Under the pieces are notes generated by a model that saw only the letters and a list, made by a program, of their open reading frames with translations, was not told the origin of the DNA and made no database searches. Shown in pieces: positions 6,879-32,465 of a stretch of DNA of 64,000 nucleotides. The number at the start of each line of letters is the position of its first letter. The first letter of the stretch is position 1. The stretch spans positions 274 to 64,273 of the forward strand of contig JASFMR010000004.1 in the NCBI GenBank assembly GCA_050117475.1, in the 5' to 3' direction. This DNA comes from Balneolaceae bacterium (GTDB taxonomy: Bacteria; Bacteroidota; Rhodothermia; Balneolales; Balneolaceae). The position numbers and the translations under genes were made by a program.

Positions 6879-8525
6879 CTAAAATTTCAATTTCCAAATG
6901 CCAGATGCCTCTGCAAGTTTTATTGCAGATTCGTGGGACATAGAATCGTAATAAGAAACAAACCGTTTGGTTTCCTTACTGTCATAAGGTGCCAGGTTTT
7001 TTGCCCATCTGAAACCAATCGGTTGATACCACAGTTCGACTTCGATATACAATGGCCCGGTAACTTTGCCCACGTCCACGATATAAGTAATGCTGTCCTT
7101 GCCTCCCGTAAAGTCACCATCCTTTCCCGCTCTGCCGTGTACGGCTATATCCTCTTCAGCAGTTGACTTATCGAACCCATCCGGTAGGATTCTGTTATCC
7201 TTGATAAACCTAACGGCTGTAAGCAAGCCTGTTGTTACCTCATCCCCGGGTCCTGCCATTATACTTTCGTAAATTTGTACCTGGTCCGGACTGTCAATCT
7301 GGGAATAATGCTGCTCAAACTTACCGGGATTATCATCATTATCATTTCCGACAATGGAACCATCCGGCCTTAGAGAACCTGATTCAAATAAAATATCCCC
7401 TGACTCATTTTTCACGGTGAAATGAATCCAGGTACGCCGTGACGGATAAGCCGTAGGTAATTTATGACCCGCAAGATTGTCAACGGATAAATACACCAAC
7501 AGTTTATTATTAACCAATTGCAGGGTATCGATTTCAAGGCGGGCAGCCTCATTCTGTAGATGTTCAATAGTCCTTAAAACACCATTTTCCATTTCTCTGG
7601 GTAGAGCTTGAACCCCCAGGTCATTTCTGTACCGATTAAGCATTTTCATCATGAAAAAATTTCCACCGAGAAATGTATGCCTCGAAACCTGTTTCCTTGG
7701 TTGCCCCATGACCGAAGATATGGACACTTCCTCCTTTACCGTAGGCATGTGGCATGACTGGCAACTTTGATTATCTTTGAAACTGCTATGGCGCCATTCG
7801 AGGTAAGGCACCTGTTCAGGTAATTCTCCGATCACTTCTCCATCCGGGCCCAGCGACTCTGTTATCAGGGTATGGCAGGTTGCACACAGTTCAGATGACT
7901 GAATATGCTTGGATTCAGCCTGTAAAAATCCCGAGGAGGAATGCATGATATTCGAAAGGCCGGGATCTACGGCATAAGGTCCATAAACTTCTCGCTGCCC
8001 CATCGGCTTCAAGCTGTCAATTACAAATCGGCCCACAAAACTCTCATAACTTCCCAGCTTTTCTTGTGTTATCTGATGACAACTTGTGCACGAGACCCCG
8101 TCAGCAGCTAATAAATCATTGCGATTAACGGCTCGATTAACCGGTAAATGGGCAAAAATCTTTGCTTTTTGCCCATTGTACTTTGCTTCATAGTGTGACA
8201 TGGGCATATGGCAAGTAGAACATTCATTTTCAATATGAGCTTGAGATTCAGGATGGTCGGTCACTTCACGGCGGACTGCCGCATGCCAATAGGGATCTCG
8301 CGCCGAATTGGCCATCATGGTTGTTCGCCAATCAATTCCAATGGAAACATCTTCTCCCCCCGATGTAATCAACCCATTATGACAACTCATGCATGCATCA
8401 GACGTTTGAAACAGTTGGTGATAAGAGCCGACTGTTGTGTTTGGGTTCATCCCGGGAGTTGACATACTTCCTATAAAAAGAACGATCGCCGGAAATGCTA
8501 ACAGAAGTAATAATCTTTTTACCAT
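6879..8525 (-). CDS. Secreted pentaheme c-type cytochrome
   Basis: Five CxxCH motifs (CMSCH, CSTCH, CTSCH, CATCH, CQSCH). Signal-like MVKRLLLLLAFPAIVLFIG starts at 8525; the track's extra 47 codons overlap the upstream gene. C-terminal heme-free domain contains GHKLPT. Confidence 0.85.
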   Translation of the reverse strand: MVKRLLLLLAFPAIVLFIGSMSTPGMNPNTTVGSYHQLFQTSDACMSCHNGLITSGGEDVSIGIDWRTTMMANSARDPYWHAAVRREVTDHPESQAHIENECSTCHMPMSHYEAKYNGQKAKIFAHLPVNRAVNRNDLLAADGVSCTSCHQITQEKLGSYESFVGRFVIDSLKPMGQREVYGPYAVDPGLSNIMHSSSGFLQAESKHIQSSELCATCHTLITESLGPDGEVIGELPEQVPYLEWRHSSFKDNQSCQSCHMPTVKEEVSISSVMGQPRKQVSRHTFLGGNFFMMKMLNRYRNDLGVQALPREMENGVLRTIEHLQNEAARLEIDTLQLVNNKLLVYLSVDNLAGHKLPTAYPSRRTWIHFTVKNESGDILFESGSLRPDGSIVGNDNDDNPGKFEQHYSQIDSPDQVQIYESIMAGPGDEVTTGLLTAVRFIKDNRILPDGFDKSTAEEDIAVHGRAGKDGDFTGGKDSITYIVDVGKVTGPLYIEVELWYQPIGFRWAKNLAPYDSKETKRFVSYYDSMSHESAIKLAEASGIWKLKF

Positions 8526-8562
8526 AAGAATCCTCGCATCATCATTAGCTGAATCAGTAAAC

Positions 8563-9726
8563 TTACCATCCCTCGAATAATCCCCCGTCAAACCAGTCCC
8601 AGAGAAAATATACCATGAGTTGGGTATCCCGTGACGGATCATCCAAAGGCATCCTAACCCCGACATTCAGCATAATATTTTGTCGTTTATTAAGCGTTAC
8701 CTGCATTTGTGGTACTATATCCCACTGGGTCTGTGCGCCGGATTCCAACTCCCGAGCCCCCAGAAACTCAACCATGGGCGACCACGTACGTCCCCACGCT
8801 CCCTGACTTATACTGCTGCCGATAAGCCCTCGCCAAAAGGCCTCCTCAGTTGCTTTATCTCTTAAAAGCGGCAACTCCATACCTCCCTGGAACTGAACAA
8901 AACTGTTCGCAGGCAGTATCTGCCCAAATGAAAGAAAAGGTTCAATGATCGTGGTACCTTTACCAAAGCCTGTCAGCCGGTCTCCGGTAGGCAAGATCAC
9001 TTCCCCGGTGACGCTGAATATGGTACCACTGCTGAAATTATGATATAAAGCGCGTTTAAAGCCTAGTGCCAAATCTCCCAGTTGGCCTCCATTCCAGTTT
9101 CCGCCGGGATCCTGTCGGAAACCAAAAGGCACTACTAATTCAAACTGGTTACGGGCACCAATACGTTTTTCATAAACAATTTTATTCATCACACTTCCTT
9201 CACCTTCAACATCGATAGAAGAACTCACTACAGCCTCATCTTCCGGGTATGCTTTTTCCGTTACAAGTGCTCTGGGTAAATTCAAATCGCCCCTCGGCCA
9301 GTCATCATCTGTACAGAAAGTGCGTATGTGTTCTATGACGGCTTCCAACTCTTCTTCACTTAGGGTTTCACCAAAAGCGGGCATGTCTTTGGCAAAGCCC
9401 CGTACGGGCCCTCCCTGGTGCGCAATGGCAATCCAATCCGCATCAGGCTCTCGTGTGGCAAAATTACAATCCGAAAGGTCAGGAAGCGGTGTAGCAAACC
9501 CCAATTGACTTTGGGATACGCCTCTTCCTCTAATCCCATGACATGCAGAACAAGCCTTCCGATACAGGAACTCACCCCTATTCGGTTCAGTAATTGTTGT
9601 ATCAGCACCCGTGTTCACAGAAAAAGAATGGGTAACGGTCGTTTGGTTTACTGCCGCAATAAGAAAAATACCAATTATCAATAAGATTGGCCCAAAGGTA
9701 TATACTCTACTATCTCTCATGATCAA
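8563..9726 (-). CDS. Monoheme cytochrome c fused to a predicted outer-membrane beta-barrel domain
   Basis: Signal peptide; class I cyt c domain (GEFLYRKACSACHG...DMPAF...LSEEELEAVIEHI). C-terminal ~230 aa has alternating amphipathic strands (GDLALGFKR, GEVILPTG, EPFLSFG) and an aromatic end (YFLWDWF...W). Barrel assignment is inference. Confidence 0.7.
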   Translation of the reverse strand: MIMRDSRVYTFGPILLIIGIFLIAAVNQTTVTHSFSVNTGADTTITEPNRGEFLYRKACSACHGIRGRGVSQSQLGFATPLPDLSDCNFATREPDADWIAIAHQGGPVRGFAKDMPAFGETLSEEELEAVIEHIRTFCTDDDWPRGDLNLPRALVTEKAYPEDEAVVSSSIDVEGEGSVMNKIVYEKRIGARNQFELVVPFGFRQDPGGNWNGGQLGDLALGFKRALYHNFSSGTIFSVTGEVILPTGDRLTGFGKGTTIIEPFLSFGQILPANSFVQFQGGMELPLLRDKATEEAFWRGLIGSSISQGAWGRTWSPMVEFLGARELESGAQTQWDIVPQMQVTLNKRQNIMLNVGVRMPLDDPSRDTQLMVYFLWDWFDGGLFEGW

Positions 9727-9784: not shown

Positions 9785-9820
9785 TAGGTTATCACCAACC
9801 GCATTGTAGGATTTTCCCTA
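9785..9820. promoter_or_regulatory. Tandem response-regulator boxes TAGGTTATCACCAA (9785-9798) and TAGGATTTTCCCTA (9807-9820)
   Basis: Two 14-bp TAGG-N6-CC(T/A)A sites 22 bp apart (about two helical turns), in the divergent promoter of the cytochrome operon. Confidence 0.6.
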
Positions 9821-9860
9821 ATCCTACCCATTACTGCCGACTTAAATCGGCCATCAGAAA

Positions 9861-9883
9861 CATGCCTTTGCAAAAAAGGCATG
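9861..9883. repeat. Inverted repeat CATGCCTTT-GCAAA-AAAGGCATG
   Basis: Perfect 9-bp arms in the same divergent intergenic region; function unknown. Confidence 0.5.
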
Positions 9884-23825: not shown

Positions 23826-26800
23826 CTAATGACTACCAACTATTATTTTGATTTTATGAGATTTCCCGTCTCTTTCCATCATCATTTTTACAGTTCCTTT
23901 TTTTACAACGATTTCTTTTCCATCCAAGGTTGCAGAGAGTGTGCCTTCCGATCGTTTTTGGGGATTTAAAACCTCAACATAATATTCCGTCTTGCCATCC
24001 AGCTCCCTGACGGCCATGCTATATCTCTTCCATTCTTTATAGATGAGGGGGGAAATTTGTAGCATATTATTTTTTTGAATATTTAATCCTAAAACAGATT
24101 CGATAATTACACGATACATCCAACCCGCCGATCCAGTGTACCAGGTCCATCCACCCACCCCTGTAAGCGGGTTCTCCCCGTAAATATCAGCTGCTACTGC
24201 ATAGGGCTCAACCAGGTAATGCTCAGCGTCGGCCTTTTCCAAAGCATGGTTTACCGGCAGAAGCATTTTTATGAGCTGCACCGCTCTTTCTCTGTTTCCC
24301 TTTTCGGCAAAGGCCTTAACCAGCCAGAGTGCAGCATGTGTATATTGCCCGCCATTCTCCCGGACCCCCGGGATATACCCTTTGATATATCCCGGATTTT
24401 GCTCTGTCTTATCAAAAGCCGGGGTTAATAGCCGTATGATGCCGTCAGTTTCTGAAACCAAAAGCTCATCCGCAGAGGACAATGCTTTCTTCGCTTTATC
24501 CGGCGTAGCCACCCCTGAAATGACCGACCAGGCTTGGGCAATCCCATCAATACGACATTCCATATTTTCCGATGATCCGATTGGTGTCCCATCGTCATAA
24601 AATGCACGACGATACCATTGACCATCCCACCCCTCTTTATTAAGATGCGTCTTCAAATTTTTCCGATAAGCCTGGTATTTTTCAACCCTCGCATCATCAT
24701 TGCGTTTTTTACACACAGGTATCATTTTTCCTAAAATATCATATAAGAAAAACCCAAGCCAGACACTCTCACCTTTGCCCCCGGTTCCAATATTATTCAT
24801 CCCGTCGTTCCAGTCCCCCGATCCGATTAGCGGCAATCCATGAATACCACTTGTAAGGGACCTGTCAATTGCACGACAACAATGTTCATATAGCGTAGCG
24901 CTTTCCGATGATACTTCTGGGATTAAATATGCTTCGTGTTCATCATCTTGCAACTGTCGGGCTTTTAAAAATCTAATATTTTCATCAAGGATATCCTCGT
25001 CACCTGTGTGATTGATATAAAAAGCCGTGACATAAGGCAACCATAACAAATCATCGGAAATACGGGATCTGATTCCCCTATCTGTGGGTGGATGCCACCA
25101 ATGTAAAACATCCCCTTCTAAGAACTGATGTCCCGCATGTAGCAGGATCTGGCTTCGGCTGAGATCGGGATCCAGGTAACAGGCAGCAGCAGCATCCTGA
25201 AGCTGATCTCGGAATCCAAAAGCTCCACTGGCTTGATAAAATCCTGACCGAGCCCACATACGGCAGGCAATATTTTGATATTGCAACCATCCATTTGCCA
25301 TAAAATTCAATTCAGGGACTGGAGATTGTACTTTAATGCGTCCCAATTTATTAGTCCAAAACTTCTTGACTTTTTCGAAGGAATCTCTAATGGTCCCTGA
25401 ATCCCGGTATTTAGAAATTATCTTTCTTGCTTCCTCTTCGTTTGTTGTTTCTCCCATATAAAAAAAGAAGTCGGCAGAACCACCGGAATCCAGTTTTGCG
25501 GTAGCCTTGATAGCGGCACAAGCCTCAAAGCCAACCCCGAATCGTTGTTCAAGGTCCGTAGCATATCCCAATGCCAAGGGATTTTTCATATTCCTGTTTC
25601 TACCAATAAATTCTGCCCGATCTGCCGTATAGGATTCGGATTCCATCTCCGCATTTGTGAAGATCCCAGTAAATCCTATACGTCCCGCAAATTCATTGTT
25701 AAAATAATTACGAGCAAATATTGTTTGGTTTTCCTCATCAAAAGCAGTGGTTAGATAACGGGTACTGTCCTCCCTGAAGATTCCCAATACCCAATCCAAA
25801 TAACGGAAAACAGAAAGGGTTTTTGGCATTAAATCAGTATTTACCAGTCTTAACCTGATAATTTTGATAGGATCATCTTTGTCAACCCACTTCGTGATCT
25901 CTTGTTCTATATTCAGTGTCTTACTGCGCCAAATGCTATAGCCAAAACCATGTCTAACTTCATGAAAATGACTTCCCGGTACCGGGCCCGGTGTCGGTGA
26001 CCAGAATAACTGTTGATCTTCATCACGAATATAAATCACTTCACCGGGCGGGTCCGTCACAGCGTCATTTGACCATGGTGTCAGCTTATTTTCCCGGCTG
26101 TTCCTGCTCCAGGTGAAGTCGGAACCGCTTTCGGAAGTGATGAAACCAAACTGAGGATTACTGATTACATTTATCCAAGGAGCAGGGGTATGGCTTAATT
26201 TCATTTTATCATCAGAATTCCGCCCAATCCGGATGACATATTCTGTGCCGGTATGGTTAAATCCACCATAACCATTATAGAACATTAGGTCAGAGTCATC
26301 AGGAATATCAACTTCGTGACTTTCAAATAAATTTATCGGGTCATACATTCTTTCCTGCTGCCAGGCTTCAACTTCGCGCAACGTAATCTGGTCCAGTTTC
26401 GGAAGCTTTCCTTTAAGAACAACCCTGGCAACCGTATCAATCAACGTCCGGTCTTCAGCCGACAACTGATCTGAACGCAGTAAAAATACTCGCCCTTTAT
26501 CCTGGTATCGGTGATGTTCCGAAGAAATCTGTACCTGTTGCATAATTGCTTCCTGTAGTTCATCTACATAGGAAGGAGGATGATCATTCATAAACACTAT
26601 ATCGACCCTGAGGCCTTTATGGCGCCAAAAAGCATGAGCTTTCAACAACAGAGCTACCTCTTTGATAAACTCAGTATCTTCAATGTGATAAACCAATATT
26701 GGGACATCCCCGGAAATGCCGTGCGTCCACAAATCCGATTGAAGCTTCCTGTTCTTTTGGAGTGTTCCTACGTCAGCCCTGAACCTTTCACAATTAAACA

Positions 26801-29800
26801 GTAAATAGCCACTCAAATTCTGGAAATAATGGGCCCGTTCCCCCGATAAACCGAGATGTTCAAGTTCTACACTGCCGTAAATGGAAGCCAGCTCGAAAAC
26901 CCGGTCTGTGGCATAAGGGTTGTCATAGCGATCTGCCATGGAAATGGCCTCATCCCTTGTCTTTTCCCAACCCAATCCAAAGGTTATATTCTTCTTTTGA
27001 CCGGGTTCCAATGTAACAATGCGCCGGATACTTAAAATAGGATCTCGAACATTGCCCACCATCCCACTAAGTTGAGCTCCCGGGTCCATGGCAGCCGGGC
27101 TTTCAAGCGATCTGTTCCGACCAATAAAATTACTGCGTTCTGTCTCTATTTGCAGGGCATTCTGAATATCTTCAATATCTTCACTGGCAATAGTATGTAC
27201 CAACCATTGAGACTCTTCATCCTTTCCGCGAGGCCGCCGTTTTGCCAATACCGCATGATGTTCTTTGATATATTCAGTCTGAACAAAAAGGTTCGAAAAA
27301 GCAGTATGGGCCCGATCAGCCTCAAAATCATTAAGGGCTACCTCGGCAAAACTGGTAAGCTCAATTTTTCGAACACGATCCGAATAATTAGTCAGGGTGA
27401 TCTTCCGCAATTCAATGTCATCTTCCGGAGAAACGCATACCTCCATAAATGATTCTATCCACTCATCTACGCGGGCATACTGCACCTTGCCGGCATGGTA
27501 CCAGCTATCGTAACGGTCGGCCTGGCGTTTGACCGGCTGATGGCCAATCGACCAGTATTCTCCGCTCTCCAGATCTCTGACGTAGAAAAACTTTCCATAG
27601 GGGTCCTGAACAACATCGGAACGCCAACGGGTCAGCATGGTGTCATTGTAATATGAATAGCCCGTGCCTGTATGGGTGAGTACTGTGGAATAACGACCGT
27701 TGGATAGGATATGGGTCCTGGGCGGAGTAGCATTCAGACCATCGATACCGGCGTGGTCTACAGAAAGTTCCACTTTCTTTTCTTCAGCAGGCTCCAGCTC
27801 AACATCAATCGGCCGTGGTTCTTTTATTGGGATACCTCTCGGGATTCGTTCCTGAAGCAATAATTCACAAGCCTGAACGAGCGGATGGGAGTGAAATAAG
27901 TGTTGTATAAAATTATCCCTCAACACATTTGCTAATGCGAGCAGGCTCATGCCCTGGTGATGAGCCATATACATTTTGACGATCGCTCTCTTGTCATTGC
28001 CATTGTTATTCAGGCGCCCGGGCGTATAATCAACAGCCTCGTAAAACCCATTAGGCCCAAAGGCTCCCTCCTCCTTAAGTTTTCTCAAGTTTTTGAGCGC
28101 ATCCACAGGCTGGATCATCATAGCCAGCATACCGGCATATGGAGCAACAACATAATCCTCAGCAAGTCCACGACGAAGGCCAAGCCCGGGTGCACCAAAC
28201 GCACGGTATTGATAATGTAACTCCAAGCTTAAAATGTTATACCCGCTCTCAGAAAATCCCCAGGGCCTACGACGCAAATTACCGTAATCTTTTTGCCATT
28301 TAACAACCTGTTCATAGGTGTGACTAAGCAATGTTTTATCATACCGTGACATAAAAAGAAGCGGCATGAGGTATTCAAAGATCGTACCTCCCCATGATAA
28401 TAAGATCTCATTTTTCTCAATACTGGTTAGCCTCCTGCTCAACCGAAACCAGTGTTCCGGCGGCACATCCCCCTTTGCAATGGCTATAAAAGAAGCAAGC
28501 CGGGCTTCACTGGCCAACAGGTCATAAGTACCTTTATCCTGCATAGCATGTTCAACGTTGAACCCAATACTGAAGAGCTCTCTTTCTGAGTTGTAGACAA
28601 GCTTGAAATCCATCTCCTCAACCATAGTGCGACAAATCGATGCAAGGTTTTCAACCTTGCGAAGCTTGCTTTCCATAGGCTTAATAGCCCTTAGAAAATT
28701 AATTTCTACATCCGAAGTACCGGAAGGTTCCGTCGTTTGCCCATTCTTTGACAGATAATCCCTGATTTCCTGGAGCTGATTGTCGATCTGAATGCATGGA
28801 CGATTAAACCAGTCTTTCCATTCACCATATTTTAAATCTTCGAACTCATCCTGTAAGATACTAAGGTTTATCTCTCCCAGTTCTTTAGCTTTAGGATGCA
28901 ATTTATTCAACGCATTTTGCCAGTCCGAGATATCTTCCGGAGCTTCTTTAGGCAGAACATCTTTTACATTTTCCAGTTTCTGGGTAAGCAGTTCGTGTAA
29001 TTTTTTATACCCGCCCAAGTCATCCAGCTCTTTCACGAGTTCTTCCAGAACAAAGACCGTTTGGTCGAGGCCATCCCAAAATACAGGATTGAGCCAGCGT
29101 TTTTGGCCTATTTGTTGTAAGAATCTTTGTACAACAAGTAGAGAAGCCGCCAAATTTCCCGAATCAACGGTAGAAACATAGTTTGGACTTAATATGGCTC
29201 CTAGCCTGGTACTATACCAGTTATAAAAATGTCCCCGGTAACGATCCAGCATCAGCATGGCATTCAACGTATTTTCAAGCCGTTCAATCATATCGGTAAG
29301 TGTGATATAACCCATCTCGTATGCCGTAGGAATCGAAACCAGGGCTAAACCTATATTCGTTGGTGAAGTTCGTCCGACGGGACCTATATATGGATCTTCC
29401 TGTACATTGTCTGGAGGAAGCCACGAATGTTCCTCATTCATATACTGCTCGAAAAAGTGCCAGGTACGCCTGGCATAACCTTTTAATTCTGACAAATCTT
29501 TGGGCTTTAGTTCTTTACCATTTTTATCTGGTTCTTTTTCGAGGTAGTATGCCACATAAGGTGTCACAACCCAGCCTATACAAACCGGAATTGCAATAAA
29601 TAATACAGGGTCATCATAAACAGCCACCAAAAACAAGGACAAGCCCGCCCAAAAGATGTTTGCCCACATGCTGATCCAGTAATTCCATAATGAAGTGCTT
29701 ATTTGTTGCTCCACCTGAGTTGCAGTAGTCCATTCGAGAAGCTTCTTATGACTGAAGAACATCCGGTAAAGAGTCCGGAAAATGGCATCCAGAGAGATAT

Positions 29801-32465
29801 AAGCTTGGTGCGGCAAGAACAGGAAACTGGTAACCGATTGCAACGTATTGGTCTTAAGATCAGCTCGCAGTTTTTCAAAATAAAGTTTCCATCCTACCCT
29901 TTTAGGTCTCCGGAAAACGTCGGTAGAGAAACTGGAATAAATCGGGAATGCGACAACACCGAAAACGGCAAGCGTCCAAACGATTGCAGAACCCGGCAAT
30001 AAGATCCAGCCAAATAGCAAGAAAAGGAGAATGCCTACCGGATTCAAGGACCTACGCAGGTTGTCAAATATTTTCCAGCGGGATATTACGTTAATCGGAT
30101 TCGATTTTTTTTGTCCATCCGGGCCGGTAACTTTGCCCCATAGCCAGGATAAAATTTGCCAATCCCCCCTGATCCACCGGTGTTGACGCTTAGAGTAACT
30201 AAGGTAGGTTGTCGGATAGTCATCAAATAATTCAATATCAGTGAGCAATGCCGATCGCAAGTATGTGCTTTCCAGCAAATCGTGTGATAATATTGCGTTC
30301 TCCGGAAAACGATCGCCAATAACCTCATCAAAGATGTGCACATCATAGATCCCTTTACCGGTATAAACTCCTTCCCCGAACAAGTCCTGGTATACATCTG
30401 AGACCGCTGTTGTATAGGGATCCAGCCCTACGTTGCCGGAGAACACCCGGGCAAATAACGTTTTGTTGGCAGATTTAGGCGGAATCGATATACGAGGCTG
30501 AAATATGCCATACCCGCGTTTTACAAAATGGTTGGATTCATCTAACTCGGGCCGGTTTAAGGGGTGTGCTGCGGCACCGATAAGAGTCTTTGCACTGCCC
30601 GGAGGCAATTTGGTATCGGCATCGAGTGTAATTACGAAATTTATGGAATGCACCCGGATCGAATTTAAAAACTGATCATTAAGTGTAATGAAGCTGTTCT
30701 CAGCTGATGGGTTAATCAAAAGCCGATTGAATTCTTCAATTTTACCGCGTTTGCGTTCCCAACCCATCCAGGCCTCTTCTCCCGGATTCCAAAGACGTTT
30801 GCGGTGAAACAGTAAAAACTTATCTCCATAATTGCTATGATACCGGTTATTCAAAAGGTTAACCTGGTTTTGCGCTTCCTGCAAAATCGACTCATCTGAA
30901 TCCATATGCTCACTGGAGGCATCATGAAAATCGGAAAGAAGTGCAAATTGTAAAGAGTCATTTGCATTGGCCAAGGCTCGTATTTCAAGTTGTTCAAACT
31001 GTTGCTCCACATCCTCACTCGAATTAAAAAGCGTCGGTACCACCACGATAGTACGGTATTCATCGGGGATCTCATTCTCGAACTCCAGTTTTGGAAGTAT
31101 ACGAGGGGGTACAAGAAATGATATAATCCGGTTTGAGGAAACAATGGATAAATCAAGAGCCGGCAAGATAGCAGCCAGTATCGTCAGGACAATAAACCAA
31201 GTTTCCTGGAAAAAGAGATTGGTAAATAAACCGGCAATAACGAGCAAAGTCGCCAAGTGCAAAATGATAATAGAAAAATATGTCCCTGGATGTTTTTCTG
31301 CTTTTTGCATCAGCCATTCATCCAGAGGCATTTTATAACCGAGTTTTTTAGCCAGCTCATGGTACCCCTCATCAATTAAATAATAGCCGATATGCATCTT
31401 CTTACCGGTTTGGACGGTACCATTTTGGGCTGCACTCTCTGCCATCATCAGGGCCTGTTCAGCGACTTCCTGCTCACTGTATCTCGAGTGAGAACTTAAC
31501 TTTTCAACACGCTTGCGGTATGTATCACGCGTATTGAAATCCATATGAGCATACTTATCAGCGGGATCAAAACGAAGGATGCGTTCCACGACTGAACAAG
31601 TTTCCACAAAGTCTGACCAATCCGTTTCGGAAACATCCCGCAGTGATGAGATGGCATTTTGTATACTCAGGTGTAGCCGTGATGTCTGCTGAGCCCGATC
31701 CCTCAGCTGCTCTTCGAGAGTGGTATCCCACCTGGAAAATTTATAATCGAACCATCGACGCTCAGTCTCCGTAAGCATGCCTTTCACCTGTAGACGCTGG
31801 GCCAGTATGATAAGAAAACGAGTAGTATCATGCTGTTGATCCACAATCTCGGAAAGCTTTCTGAGCAAATACCCCGGTTCCTCAGTCTCCGCACTGATTT
31901 TTTCTTTAAGTATTTTATCTATCTCATCTTGAATCTGTCGATCATAAAGCAGCTTTTCCGCACGTTCTGAAAGGCGGACAATCAATGCCAGCCTATTCAT
32001 CAATGGAACCGACCACATCTCAGCCAGGTTTAATGTGTCAATCTCCTGGTAAGCTTTAATAGCCGTAATCGTATTATCCTGGTCAATAATATTATCGCTG
32101 ATGGCGGCCAGCATCTGTACAATTTCGTAAGTCCGGGGATAGCCTCGGTACTCACCCTGCGTAAGCCGGGGTAATTTTTTATAATAATCTTCGGGAAGAT
32201 CTTCTTTTAGCTGAACGATCTGTTCCTGTATGATATAAAAGTTATCAATGATCCATTCAGCGGCAGAACTTAATTCGCGGTTTTGCTTGGCAGCCCGTGC
32301 CAAGACCCGGTATGCCTCGGTAAGTATAGATTTGGAATCTGATAAAACCGCATCAATAGATTGCAACGGTTTTTGCTCCAAAGTAGCTTGCTGTAAATGG
32401 GCAAGCTGTCTGATCTCCTCTTGTAAATATTGTTTATTATAATGTACTTGTGTTCCTGTCGGCAT
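23826..32465 (-). CDS. ndvB: Cyclic beta-1,2-glucan synthase (Cgs/NdvB/ChvB-type; GT84 + GH94 domains)
   Basis: 2879 aa; GWERKRGK, ITLDADT, ILSHDLLE, RWIRGDWQ, RTSPTNIG, YDLLASEAR, MAHHQGM; C-terminal GH94 GAFGFRDQLQD, GDWNDGM, ENGGQYTH. Confidence 0.9.
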   Translation of the reverse strand: MPTGTQVHYNKQYLQEEIRQLAHLQQATLEQKPLQSIDAVLSDSKSILTEAYRVLARAAKQNRELSSAAEWIIDNFYIIQEQIVQLKEDLPEDYYKKLPRLTQGEYRGYPRTYEIVQMLAAISDNIIDQDNTITAIKAYQEIDTLNLAEMWSVPLMNRLALIVRLSERAEKLLYDRQIQDEIDKILKEKISAETEEPGYLLRKLSEIVDQQHDTTRFLIILAQRLQVKGMLTETERRWFDYKFSRWDTTLEEQLRDRAQQTSRLHLSIQNAISSLRDVSETDWSDFVETCSVVERILRFDPADKYAHMDFNTRDTYRKRVEKLSSHSRYSEQEVAEQALMMAESAAQNGTVQTGKKMHIGYYLIDEGYHELAKKLGYKMPLDEWLMQKAEKHPGTYFSIIILHLATLLVIAGLFTNLFFQETWFIVLTILAAILPALDLSIVSSNRIISFLVPPRILPKLEFENEIPDEYRTIVVVPTLFNSSEDVEQQFEQLEIRALANANDSLQFALLSDFHDASSEHMDSDESILQEAQNQVNLLNNRYHSNYGDKFLLFHRKRLWNPGEEAWMGWERKRGKIEEFNRLLINPSAENSFITLNDQFLNSIRVHSINFVITLDADTKLPPGSAKTLIGAAAHPLNRPELDESNHFVKRGYGIFQPRISIPPKSANKTLFARVFSGNVGLDPYTTAVSDVYQDLFGEGVYTGKGIYDVHIFDEVIGDRFPENAILSHDLLESTYLRSALLTDIELFDDYPTTYLSYSKRQHRWIRGDWQILSWLWGKVTGPDGQKKSNPINVISRWKIFDNLRRSLNPVGILLFLLFGWILLPGSAIVWTLAVFGVVAFPIYSSFSTDVFRRPKRVGWKLYFEKLRADLKTNTLQSVTSFLFLPHQAYISLDAIFRTLYRMFFSHKKLLEWTTATQVEQQISTSLWNYWISMWANIFWAGLSLFLVAVYDDPVLFIAIPVCIGWVVTPYVAYYLEKEPDKNGKELKPKDLSELKGYARRTWHFFEQYMNEEHSWLPPDNVQEDPYIGPVGRTSPTNIGLALVSIPTAYEMGYITLTDMIERLENTLNAMLMLDRYRGHFYNWYSTRLGAILSPNYVSTVDSGNLAASLLVVQRFLQQIGQKRWLNPVFWDGLDQTVFVLEELVKELDDLGGYKKLHELLTQKLENVKDVLPKEAPEDISDWQNALNKLHPKAKELGEINLSILQDEFEDLKYGEWKDWFNRPCIQIDNQLQEIRDYLSKNGQTTEPSGTSDVEINFLRAIKPMESKLRKVENLASICRTMVEEMDFKLVYNSERELFSIGFNVEHAMQDKGTYDLLASEARLASFIAIAKGDVPPEHWFRLSRRLTSIEKNEILLSWGGTIFEYLMPLLFMSRYDKTLLSHTYEQVVKWQKDYGNLRRRPWGFSESGYNILSLELHYQYRAFGAPGLGLRRGLAEDYVVAPYAGMLAMMIQPVDALKNLRKLKEEGAFGPNGFYEAVDYTPGRLNNNGNDKRAIVKMYMAHHQGMSLLALANVLRDNFIQHLFHSHPLVQACELLLQERIPRGIPIKEPRPIDVELEPAEEKKVELSVDHAGIDGLNATPPRTHILSNGRYSTVLTHTGTGYSYYNDTMLTRWRSDVVQDPYGKFFYVRDLESGEYWSIGHQPVKRQADRYDSWYHAGKVQYARVDEWIESFMEVCVSPEDDIELRKITLTNYSDRVRKIELTSFAEVALNDFEADRAHTAFSNLFVQTEYIKEHHAVLAKRRPRGKDEESQWLVHTIASEDIEDIQNALQIETERSNFIGRNRSLESPAAMDPGAQLSGMVGNVRDPILSIRRIVTLEPGQKKNITFGLGWEKTRDEAISMADRYDNPYATDRVFELASIYGSVELEHLGLSGERAHYFQNLSGYLLFNCERFRADVGTLQKNRKLQSDLWTHGISGDVPILVYHIEDTEFIKEVALLLKAHAFWRHKGLRVDIVFMNDHPPSYVDELQEAIMQQVQISSEHHRYQDKGRVFLLRSDQLSAEDRTLIDTVARVVLKGKLPKLDQITLREVEAWQQERMYDPINLFESHEVDIPDDSDLMFYNGYGGFNHTGTEYVIRIGRNSDDKMKLSHTPAPWINVISNPQFGFITSESGSDFTWSRNSRENKLTPWSNDAVTDPPGEVIYIRDEDQQLFWSPTPGPVPGSHFHEVRHGFGYSIWRSKTLNIEQEITKWVDKDDPIKIIRLRLVNTDLMPKTLSVFRYLDWVLGIFREDSTRYLTTAFDEENQTIFARNYFNNEFAGRIGFTGIFTNAEMESESYTADRAEFIGRNRNMKNPLALGYATDLEQRFGVGFEACAAIKATAKLDSGGSADFFFYMGETTNEEEARKIISKYRDSGTIRDSFEKVKKFWTNKLGRIKVQSPVPELNFMANGWLQYQNIACRMWARSGFYQASGAFGFRDQLQDAAAACYLDPDLSRSQILLHAGHQFLEGDVLHWWHPPTDRGIRSRISDDLLWLPYVTAFYINHTGDEDILDENIRFLKARQLQDDEHEAYLIPEVSSESATLYEHCCRAIDRSLTSGIHGLPLIGSGDWNDGMNNIGTGGKGESVWLGFFLYDILGKMIPVCKKRNDDARVEKYQAYRKNLKTHLNKEGWDGQWYRRAFYDDGTPIGSSENMECRIDGIAQAWSVISGVATPDKAKKALSSADELLVSETDGIIRLLTPAFDKTEQNPGYIKGYIPGVRENGGQYTHAALWLVKAFAEKGNRERAVQLIKMLLPVNHALEKADAEHYLVEPYAVAADIYGENPLTGVGGWTWYTGSAGWMYRVIIESVLGLNIQKNNMLQISPLIYKEWKRYSMAVRELDGKTEYYVEVLNPQKRSEGTLSATLDGKEIVVKKGTVKMMMERDGKSHKIKIIVGSH

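Follow-up and report, generated by a model that had tools for sequence, protein, structure and literature searches.

A pair of adjacent genes at positions 6879-9726 of a 64,000-nucleotide stretch of the genome of Balneolaceae bacterium (assembly GCA_050117475.1, contig JASFMR010000004.1; the whole stretch is called the window below) encodes a single-heme cytochrome c fused to an outer-membrane beta-barrel (gene 1) and a pentaheme cytochrome (gene 2). We favour, with moderate confidence, a reading in which the two proteins form an outer-membrane-anchored, periplasm-facing, two-subunit c-type cytochrome complex, whose barrel would serve as an anchor and probably as a channel for small solutes. 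This reading draws on the domain make-up of both proteins, the fold of the barrel, the fold kinship of gene 2, the adjacency, distribution and conservation of the pair, and the lack of an export route for gene 2, all of which were computed here. Four alternatives are weighed in the order of a Cyc2-like solute oxidase, a trans-membrane conduit, an autotransporter-like display system and a sensor. The two genes are built as follows:

8563-9726, minus strand: gene 1, a fusion of a cytochrome c with a 12-stranded outer-membrane barrel (open reading frame (ORF) list, Pfam, AlphaFold2, Foldseek)
9646-9726, minus strand: gene 1 signal peptide, about residues 1-27 (basic N-region, then a hydrophobic helix at residues 7-27)
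9307-9588, minus strand: gene 1 class I cytochrome c domain, residues 47-140 (Pfam, PDB sequence matches, invariant columns)
9238-9306, minus strand: gene 1 linker, residues 141-163, DDWPRGDLNLPRALVTEKAYPED, acidic, proline-rich and near-invariant (entropy 0.66 bits)
8566-9237, minus strand: gene 1 outer-membrane beta-barrel, residues 164-387, 12 strands (AlphaFold2, Foldseek, conservation of strand faces)
6879-8525, minus strand: gene 2, a pentaheme cytochrome with a heme-free beta-sandwich, 548 residues (ORF, Pfam, alignment, AlphaFold2, Foldseek, family profile)
7656-8411, minus strand: gene 2 five-heme domain, about residues 39-290 (five invariant CxxCH motifs)
6882-7544, minus strand: gene 2 immunoglobulin (Ig)-like or beta-sandwich domain, residues 328-548, heme-free, with the opening motif NLAGHKLPTAYPSRR (AlphaFold2, family profile, Foldseek)

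Gene 1 is 387 residues long when counted from the TTG at 9726 given in the ORF list; its true start is probably the ATG at 9720, two codons later, because the homologs align from there. Canonical cleavable signal peptides are found in homologs, with AxA sites in those of other phyla (e.g. L067 and P0359), and the spacer that follows the signal sequence is variable and modelled with low confidence. The heme domain matches Cytochrome_CBB3 (PF13442, 1.2e-10) and Cytochrom_C (1.5e-6) in Pfam, and its sequence matches in the PDB are small cytochromes of the c552/c6 type. The sole CxxCH motif of the protein, CSACH (C59-H63, nucleotides 9538-9552), is invariant in an alignment of 50 homologs, as are C87, C138 and M115, which lies within DMPAFG and is the likely sixth heme ligand. 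An earlier account of this DNA, referred to here as the sequence-only reading, had described the signal peptide, the one class I domain, the methionine in DMPAF and two extra cysteines, all of which are present.

The C-terminal part of gene 1 forms a barrel. The AlphaFold2 model, built on the 50-sequence alignment, has a mean predicted local distance difference test score (pLDDT) of 81 that exceeds 90 across residues 151-380, and DSSP assigns it 12 strands; the soluble, non-barrel fold that the sequence-only reading had named as its refutation is not seen. FapF is the top PDB match of the model in Foldseek (2.4e-10), and the COG4313 channel 4rl8 also matches (5.9e-6, target TM-score 0.60), alongside the further 12-stranded structures NanC, KdgM, the beta-domains of BrkA, Hbp and AaaA, and intimin/invasin. 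The Pfam family Phenol_MetA_deg (PF13557) stays below its gathering score on gene 1 (17.9 against 22 bits, E = 0.0033, residues 178-265 only), and a precomputed match to it is on record for several homologs. These results agree with the earlier view that the barrel is of the small COG4313/MetA type and not Cyc2-like. FapF (5o65/5o68) and 4rl8 are, like the gene 1 barrel, 12-stranded, and their lumen is plugged or lined by an N-terminal segment, but they have no fused cytochrome, their sequence identity to gene 1 is 12-14%, and the gene 1 locus has neither a fap operon nor aromatic-degradation neighbours.

The linker is modelled as a coil with three prolines and no helix, with a pLDDT above 90 over its residues 151-163, and is a candidate barrel plug or docking element. 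The barrel closes with an invariant tail, DWFDGG-FEGW, so that the protein ends in ...LFEGW. Heme domain and barrel are both kept in all full-length gene 1 relatives, down to 32% identity.

This architecture invites comparison with Cyc2, which is likewise a single polypeptide with a signal peptide, an N-terminal heme domain with one CxxCH, and a C-terminal outer-membrane barrel. The comparison is one of architecture and strand number, and the Pfam and NCBIfam matches of gene 1 are to generic cytochrome c. The Cyc2 barrel is predicted to have about 16 strands, against the 12 of the FapF/COG4313 type found here. Furthermore, the gene 1 heme domain is, unlike that of Cyc2, a complete class I cytochrome c, about 95 residues long, with a methionine ligand and a cysteine pair; the pentaheme partner gene is obligate here, unlike in Cyc2 systems, and the carriers are not iron oxidisers.

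The pair might nonetheless act as a Cyc2-like oxidase or reductase of a solute such as Fe(II), which would enter the channel from outside and meet the tethered heme at the periplasmic mouth, leaving the pentaheme as only a periplasmic acceptor or capacitor of electrons. We consider this unlikely. In its favour are the combination of a monoheme domain with a barrel as in Cyc2, a lumen that is polar and highly conserved, and gene 1 paralogs lacking a pentaheme, so that the fusion can act alone. The barrel, however, is of the FapF/COG4313 type and not the Cyc2 type. Most carriers are heterotrophs from soil and saline sediment, and in them the module is an accessory pair. General porins already pass small ions, and the lumen may be plugged by the near-invariant linker.

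The most plausible start of gene 2 is at 8525 (MVKRLLLL...), which leaves a gap of 37 nucleotides after the stop of gene 1. Its CxxCH motifs (residues 45-49, 102-106, 146-150, 214-218 and 255-259) are invariant among homologs, in which the only conserved cysteines are the ten of these motifs. The five motifs and the heme-free tail reported by the sequence-only reading are both upheld, although the tail had been put at about 270 residues and extends for 289 after the last CxxCH. In the AlphaFold2 model the C-terminal half is strand-rich, with a pLDDT of about 90; confidence is weaker in the heme domain, as expected because it was modelled without hemes. H207, H283, H354, H406, M71 and M194 are conserved across both subfamilies of the protein (described below) and are candidate distal heme ligands, while H91 and H246 are conserved chiefly in the barrel-partnered form.

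The only significant structural match of gene 2 is the low-potential pentaheme cytochrome c552 of Thermochromatium tepidum (5ze8; Foldseek, 1.3e-11), which the gene 2 family profile also reaches by sequence (E = 8.8e-5) via NLAGHKLPTAYPSRR at the start of the sandwich. The two proteins share five hemes, an Ig-like domain and the motif H-x2-PT-x-P-x-R at the sandwich start; their identity is 14%, and gene 2 is longer by more than 110 residues and has a larger sandwich. We know of no barrel partner of the T. tepidum protein. The layout of gene 2 is also that described for MccSep/ExtKL, a selenocysteine polysulfide reductase of Geobacter sulfurreducens, which is periplasmic and consists of an alpha-helical cap with five c-hemes and a C-terminal Ig-like stem, and whose catalysis requires the heme-ligating Cys239 and Sec/Cys325 (10.1101/2025.11.18.688581). 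This likeness is one of description, and MccSep-type chemistry was rejected for gene 2, which has no cysteine beyond its five CxxCH motifs and no in-frame TGA. A reading as NrfA was also set aside: all motifs are CxxCH, none is CxxCK, and PF02335 (Cytochrom_C552) reaches only E = 0.45. More generally, matches that would suggest NrfA, NrfB, c554, MtrC or MauG are sub-threshold only in Pfam and NCBIfam.

The two genes form a conserved unit, as had been claimed from the sequence alone. In 80 of 83 loci, drawn from at least six phyla, the gene directly downstream of the gene 1 relative and on its strand is a gene 2 homolog, a pairing not due to chance; the exceptions are a contig end, a locus with a BON-domain gene next, and one with a gene for a 252-residue secreted protein containing C-x2-H-x2-M. 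The last of these, from one Gemmatimonadota metagenome-assembled genome (MAG; L074:2609-3364), carries HNVH ... C-D-I-H-G-W-M after the fusion, resembling a type-1 copper site; a cupredoxin reading of this variant partner has only a motif for its basis, with no cupredoxin match in Pfam, and was rejected. ORF clustering across the 80 loci revealed no recurrent further neighbour, only artefactual antisense ORFs from GC-rich genomes and occasional ABC permeases, and a Pfam tally of 132 flanking proteins found nothing enriched. From conserved adjacency without any other conserved neighbour, we conclude that the pair is a self-contained two-gene cassette. The ptdABCDEFG cluster (10.1101/2023.11.21.568154), likened here by description, encodes PtdA and PtdB in the reverse order to the pair, with PtdB described only as a porin, and contains five further genes, whereas the pair stands alone.

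The obligate adjacency suggests physical contact between the two proteins. Among the residues that only the barrel-partnered pentahemes conserve, arginine and lysine are frequent (R85, R86, R298, R300 and K453), and the linker and tail of gene 1 are acidic; we hypothesise that these basic residues of gene 2 may dock on the acidic elements of gene 1. Long apparent fusions of gene 1 to gene 2 (P0268, P0275 and P0389; 560-735 residues) proved to be frameshifted read-through in error-rich assemblies and were rejected as Rosetta-stone fusions.

The orientation of the barrel was judged from column conservation, with short strand connections taken, as usual, to be periplasmic turns. One face of the strands is hydrophobic and variable and the other polar and conserved, which marks a barrel that is embedded in the membrane and has a functional lumen. 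The presumed outer loops, of 5-14 residues, are the most variable parts (about 1.9-2.7 bits, with the exception of L3 at 1.18), and the most conserved are the 11-residue tail (0.39 bits), turn T5 (0.58), turn T1 (0.60) and the linker (0.66). The contrast between variable outer loops and a conserved lumen, turns, linker and tail argues that the constrained surfaces face the lumen and the periplasm.

Gene 2, for its part, shows no T9SS (type IX secretion system) sorting domain (Por_Secre_tail) in Pfam at E up to 1. In the window's genome, which is estimated to be 100% complete, the type II secretion system (T2SS) markers GspG and GspL have no match, and the T9SS translocon SprA has a strong one. 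Because T2SS markers and a T9SS sorting domain are both absent, we infer by elimination that the gene 2 protein stays in the periplasm.

These observations bear on the proposal, made by the sequence-only reading, of a heme conduit across the outer membrane. With 12 strands, against 26 in MtrB and about 16 in Cyc2, the present barrel is too small for a heme domain, which makes a heme wire through it unlikely. MtrCAB and Pcc loci also encode cytochromes beside an outer-membrane barrel, but their barrels have 20-26 strands around a multiheme wire, whereas here there are 12 and the heme domain is predicted to lie outside the barrel; gene 2, unlike the cytochrome enclosed in MtrAB or Pcc, joins five hemes to a bulky sandwich domain. 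The earlier suggestion that the system is distinct from Cyc2 and MtrAB is upheld. The porin-multiheme cytochrome system of Verrucomicrobia was rejected as a different one, in which an octaheme cytochrome accompanies a porin predicted to have 20 or more transmembrane segments.

A true electron conduit, with the pentaheme outside the cell and wired through the barrel-cytochrome fusion, is in our judgement very unlikely. T9SS-tagged paralogs of the pentaheme are very likely to be on the cell surface, and gene 2 bears a weak Pfam resemblance to the heme domains of MtrC/MtrF, both of which would suit such an arrangement. Set against these are the narrow barrel, which cannot hold a heme domain, the short and variable outer loops, and a single heme on one side that leaves about 3 nm without a cofactor. 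Additionally, with no T9SS domain in gene 2 and no T2SS markers in the genome, the pentaheme has no recognisable export route here, and the conduit claim was not sustained.

We are now able to set out the favoured model of a periplasm-facing complex anchored by the barrel. Subunit A (gene 1) would be exported by the Sec pathway and lose its signal peptide, after which its C-terminal 12-stranded barrel of the FapF/COG4313 type would insert into the outer membrane. The class I His/Met cytochrome c domain would stay in the periplasm, stapled by Cys87-Cys138, and the acidic linker would tether it to the barrel, probably packing into or against the polar, conserved lumen. Subunit B (gene 2), predicted to be a periplasmic pentaheme, would combine a helical cap bearing five hemes with an Ig-like beta-sandwich; it may dock on subunit A at the linker, the C-terminal tail and turns T1 and T5. 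Electrons would then move between the heme chain of B and the single heme of A. The heme of A would in turn exchange electrons with the general periplasmic pool of cytochrome c, a step suggested by the lack of a dedicated quinol dehydrogenase linked to the pair. The barrel would hold the complex under the outer membrane and would probably also let a small solute or redox substrate reach or leave it. The substrate could be a metal ion, a redox shuttle or a small species of sulfur, nitrogen or oxygen.

The pentaheme family extends beyond the pair. Stand-alone paralogs of gene 2 in other Bacteroidota (loci L087-L094; 33-39% identity, 630-660 residues) end in a T9SS sorting domain, present in Pfam at L087 and L091 (Por_Secre_tail, 2.3e-8 and 1.2e-5). 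They adjoin housekeeping genes (e.g. recF and dciA), form a clade apart in the gene 2 tree, and occur in genomes that have no gene 1 relative. Ignavibacteria, Calditrichota and KSB1 have many relatives of these paralogs, named there as T9SS sorting-domain proteins. The family thus comprises two forms, one predicted to be exported to the cell surface by T9SS and one partnered with a barrel.

This complementary distribution of T9SS-tagged and barrel-partnered pentahemes could also be accommodated by an autotransporter-like display, in which the cytochrome c passenger is exported via its own barrel and anchors an exported pentaheme as the T9SS anchor does in the sister clade. The order of signal peptide, passenger, linker and 12-stranded C-terminal barrel is that of type Va systems, and the Foldseek matches to the BrkA, Hbp and AaaA beta-domains and to intimin/invasin point the same way. 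Nonetheless, we regard this as highly improbable. The linker is proline-rich with no helix predicted, gene 1 has no match to a Pfam autotransporter domain, and conservation sits on the periplasmic turns. A covalent heme and an invariant cysteine pair 51 residues apart also speak against passage through a narrow pore, and the pentaheme lacks an export route of its own.

Some of the evidence weighs against the periplasm-facing complex that we favour. Firstly, the T9SS-tagged sister clade presumably works outside the cell, which raises the possibility that the chemistry of the family is extracellular. Secondly, gene 1 paralogs of 30-37% identity occur without any pentaheme; because they exist, the fusion can evidently work without one, functioning alone or with other partners. 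Finally, gene 2 has enough conserved histidines and methionines that all five hemes could be six-coordinate, and because of this there is no sequence sign of a catalytic heme. Three of the gene 1 paralogs that lack a pentaheme (L096, L097 and L098; about 34-36% identity) are followed by an AhpC/TSA-type (TlpA/AhpC-like) redoxin, checked at L096 and L098, and a full-length DsbD. These three genomes represent one family and are not independent cases; the neighbouring redoxin and DsbD may point to a role in cytochrome maturation or to a function linked to thiols.

Relatives of either protein number in the thousands, with thousands of metagenomic proteins belonging to the module, and across phyla both proteins are 52-71% identical. 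In a scan of one genome per species, which gives a lower bound on the number of genomes concerned, a gene 1 relative was found in at least 540 species-level genomes. The best 80 of these, at 52-71% identity, come from Balneolota, Rhodothermota, Gemmatimonadota, Acidobacteriota (several orders), Methylomirabilota, Krumholzibacteriota and Myxococcota, and carriers of the module are bacteria of soil, sediment and saline habitats. Within the window's phylum, 12 of 301 sampled genomes have a gene 1 relative, and a close gene 2 is also present in only two of the 12, both from the window's own genus (two of the five sampled). The gene 1 fusion (E < 1e-190) is found in 5 of 61 genomes of the window's family, and its presence differs among species of the same genus. 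Overall the module is accessory and patchy. The Balneolota group into a single clade in the gene 2 tree, in which Acidobacteriota and Gemmatimonadota intermingle along a short and unresolved backbone. Distribution, tree and random neighbourhoods together fit repeated loss with some horizontal transfer.

Cultured carriers include Fodinibius sediminis DSM 21194, F. salsisoli, Rhodohalobacter mucosus, Longibacter salinarum and a Gracilimonas sp., which opens the function to direct test. Public records name the products only as 'c-type cytochrome', 'cytochrome c554 and c-prime' or 'hypothetical protein', and our literature searches found no published description of the present cytochrome c-barrel fusion. 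Three module contigs (L037, L082 and L059) are labelled Bifidobacteriaceae, Eubacteriales or Desulfohalobiaceae; L037 and L082 are probably mis-binned MAG contigs, because both fall within Acidobacteriota clades in the tree.

The known outer-membrane cytochrome systems, Cyc2, Mtr and Pcc, come from a small number of model organisms. Acidobacteriota and Gemmatimonadota count among the most numerous bacteria of soil, and little is known of their redox chemistry in the periplasm and outside the cell. The pair and its T9SS-tagged sister clade together span Acidobacteriota, Gemmatimonadota, Balneolota, Rhodothermota, Ignavibacteria, Calditrichota and KSB1. We put forward, tentatively and with low confidence, the wider view that they belong to a very widespread, unrecognised family of outer-membrane or cell-surface heme proteins. 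In T9SS lineages this would take the form of a surface pentaheme, and elsewhere that of a patchy, possibly mobile cassette that docks a pentaheme under a dedicated 12-stranded channel with a tethered cytochrome c. Both would serve a so far unassigned redox reaction with an external or membrane-proximal substrate in soils and sediments. In construction the module differs from the systems named above, pairing a small FapF/COG4313-type barrel that carries its own cytochrome c with a pentaheme of the c552/MccSep type. Assignment of its substrate would add a reaction to models of electron flow in soil and sediment, and the sister clade, if correctly read, would be a rare multiheme cytochrome predicted for T9SS export.

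The region upstream of gene 1 contains one further feature:

9806-9883, minus strand: leader or promoter region with three tandem hairpins or palindromes (inverted repeats I3 and I5; fold z = -3.4)

The hairpins lie at 9861-9883, at about 9838-9853 (placed by eye) and at 9806-9827. The sole conserved one among them contains the palindrome TAGGGAAAATCCTA (TAGG-N6-CCTA, 9807-9820), which recurs in the related loci L084, L085 and L086, has its only exact copy in the window here, and is a candidate operator. The tandem regulator boxes of the sequence-only reading are thus weakly supported: the three hairpins are present and one is conserved, but there are no direct repeats upstream of gene 1. The hairpin region matches no Rfam family. 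The hairpin at 9861-9883 resembles an intrinsic terminator of the minus strand, yet no minus-strand gene ends there, and the intergenic region is a divergent one.

Redox sensing or signalling by a device induced at low oxygen had also been suggested, and the conserved palindrome, together with an ORF in the window's genome that resembles a cbb3-type oxidase by motif, could be taken to favour it. We hold this to be exceedingly improbable, given that neither protein has a signalling output domain, no conserved regulator lies nearby and no FNR/CRP-type site is found upstream of gene 1. Both parts of that suggestion, the sensing and the low-oxygen induction, were dropped on these grounds.

Elsewhere in the same genome, outside the window, a separate candidate porin-cytochrome cluster lies on the minus strand of another contig (C48:15-7437). 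It encodes an oxidoreductase-like protein of the iron-sulfur/flavin adenine dinucleotide type (443 residues), a strand-rich protein of 550 residues ending in ...SIWRSF, proteins of 447 and 577 residues with 16 and 20 CxxCH motifs, respectively, a TPR-like protein and a multi-pass membrane protein. Its make-up recalls that of the ptd cluster, and it is found in 3 of 61 genomes of the family. Co-occurrence of this cluster with the pentaheme module was considered and rejected, the two overlapping within the family in this genome only. Within the window itself, the largest ORF lies at 23826-32465 on the minus strand and encodes 2879 residues.

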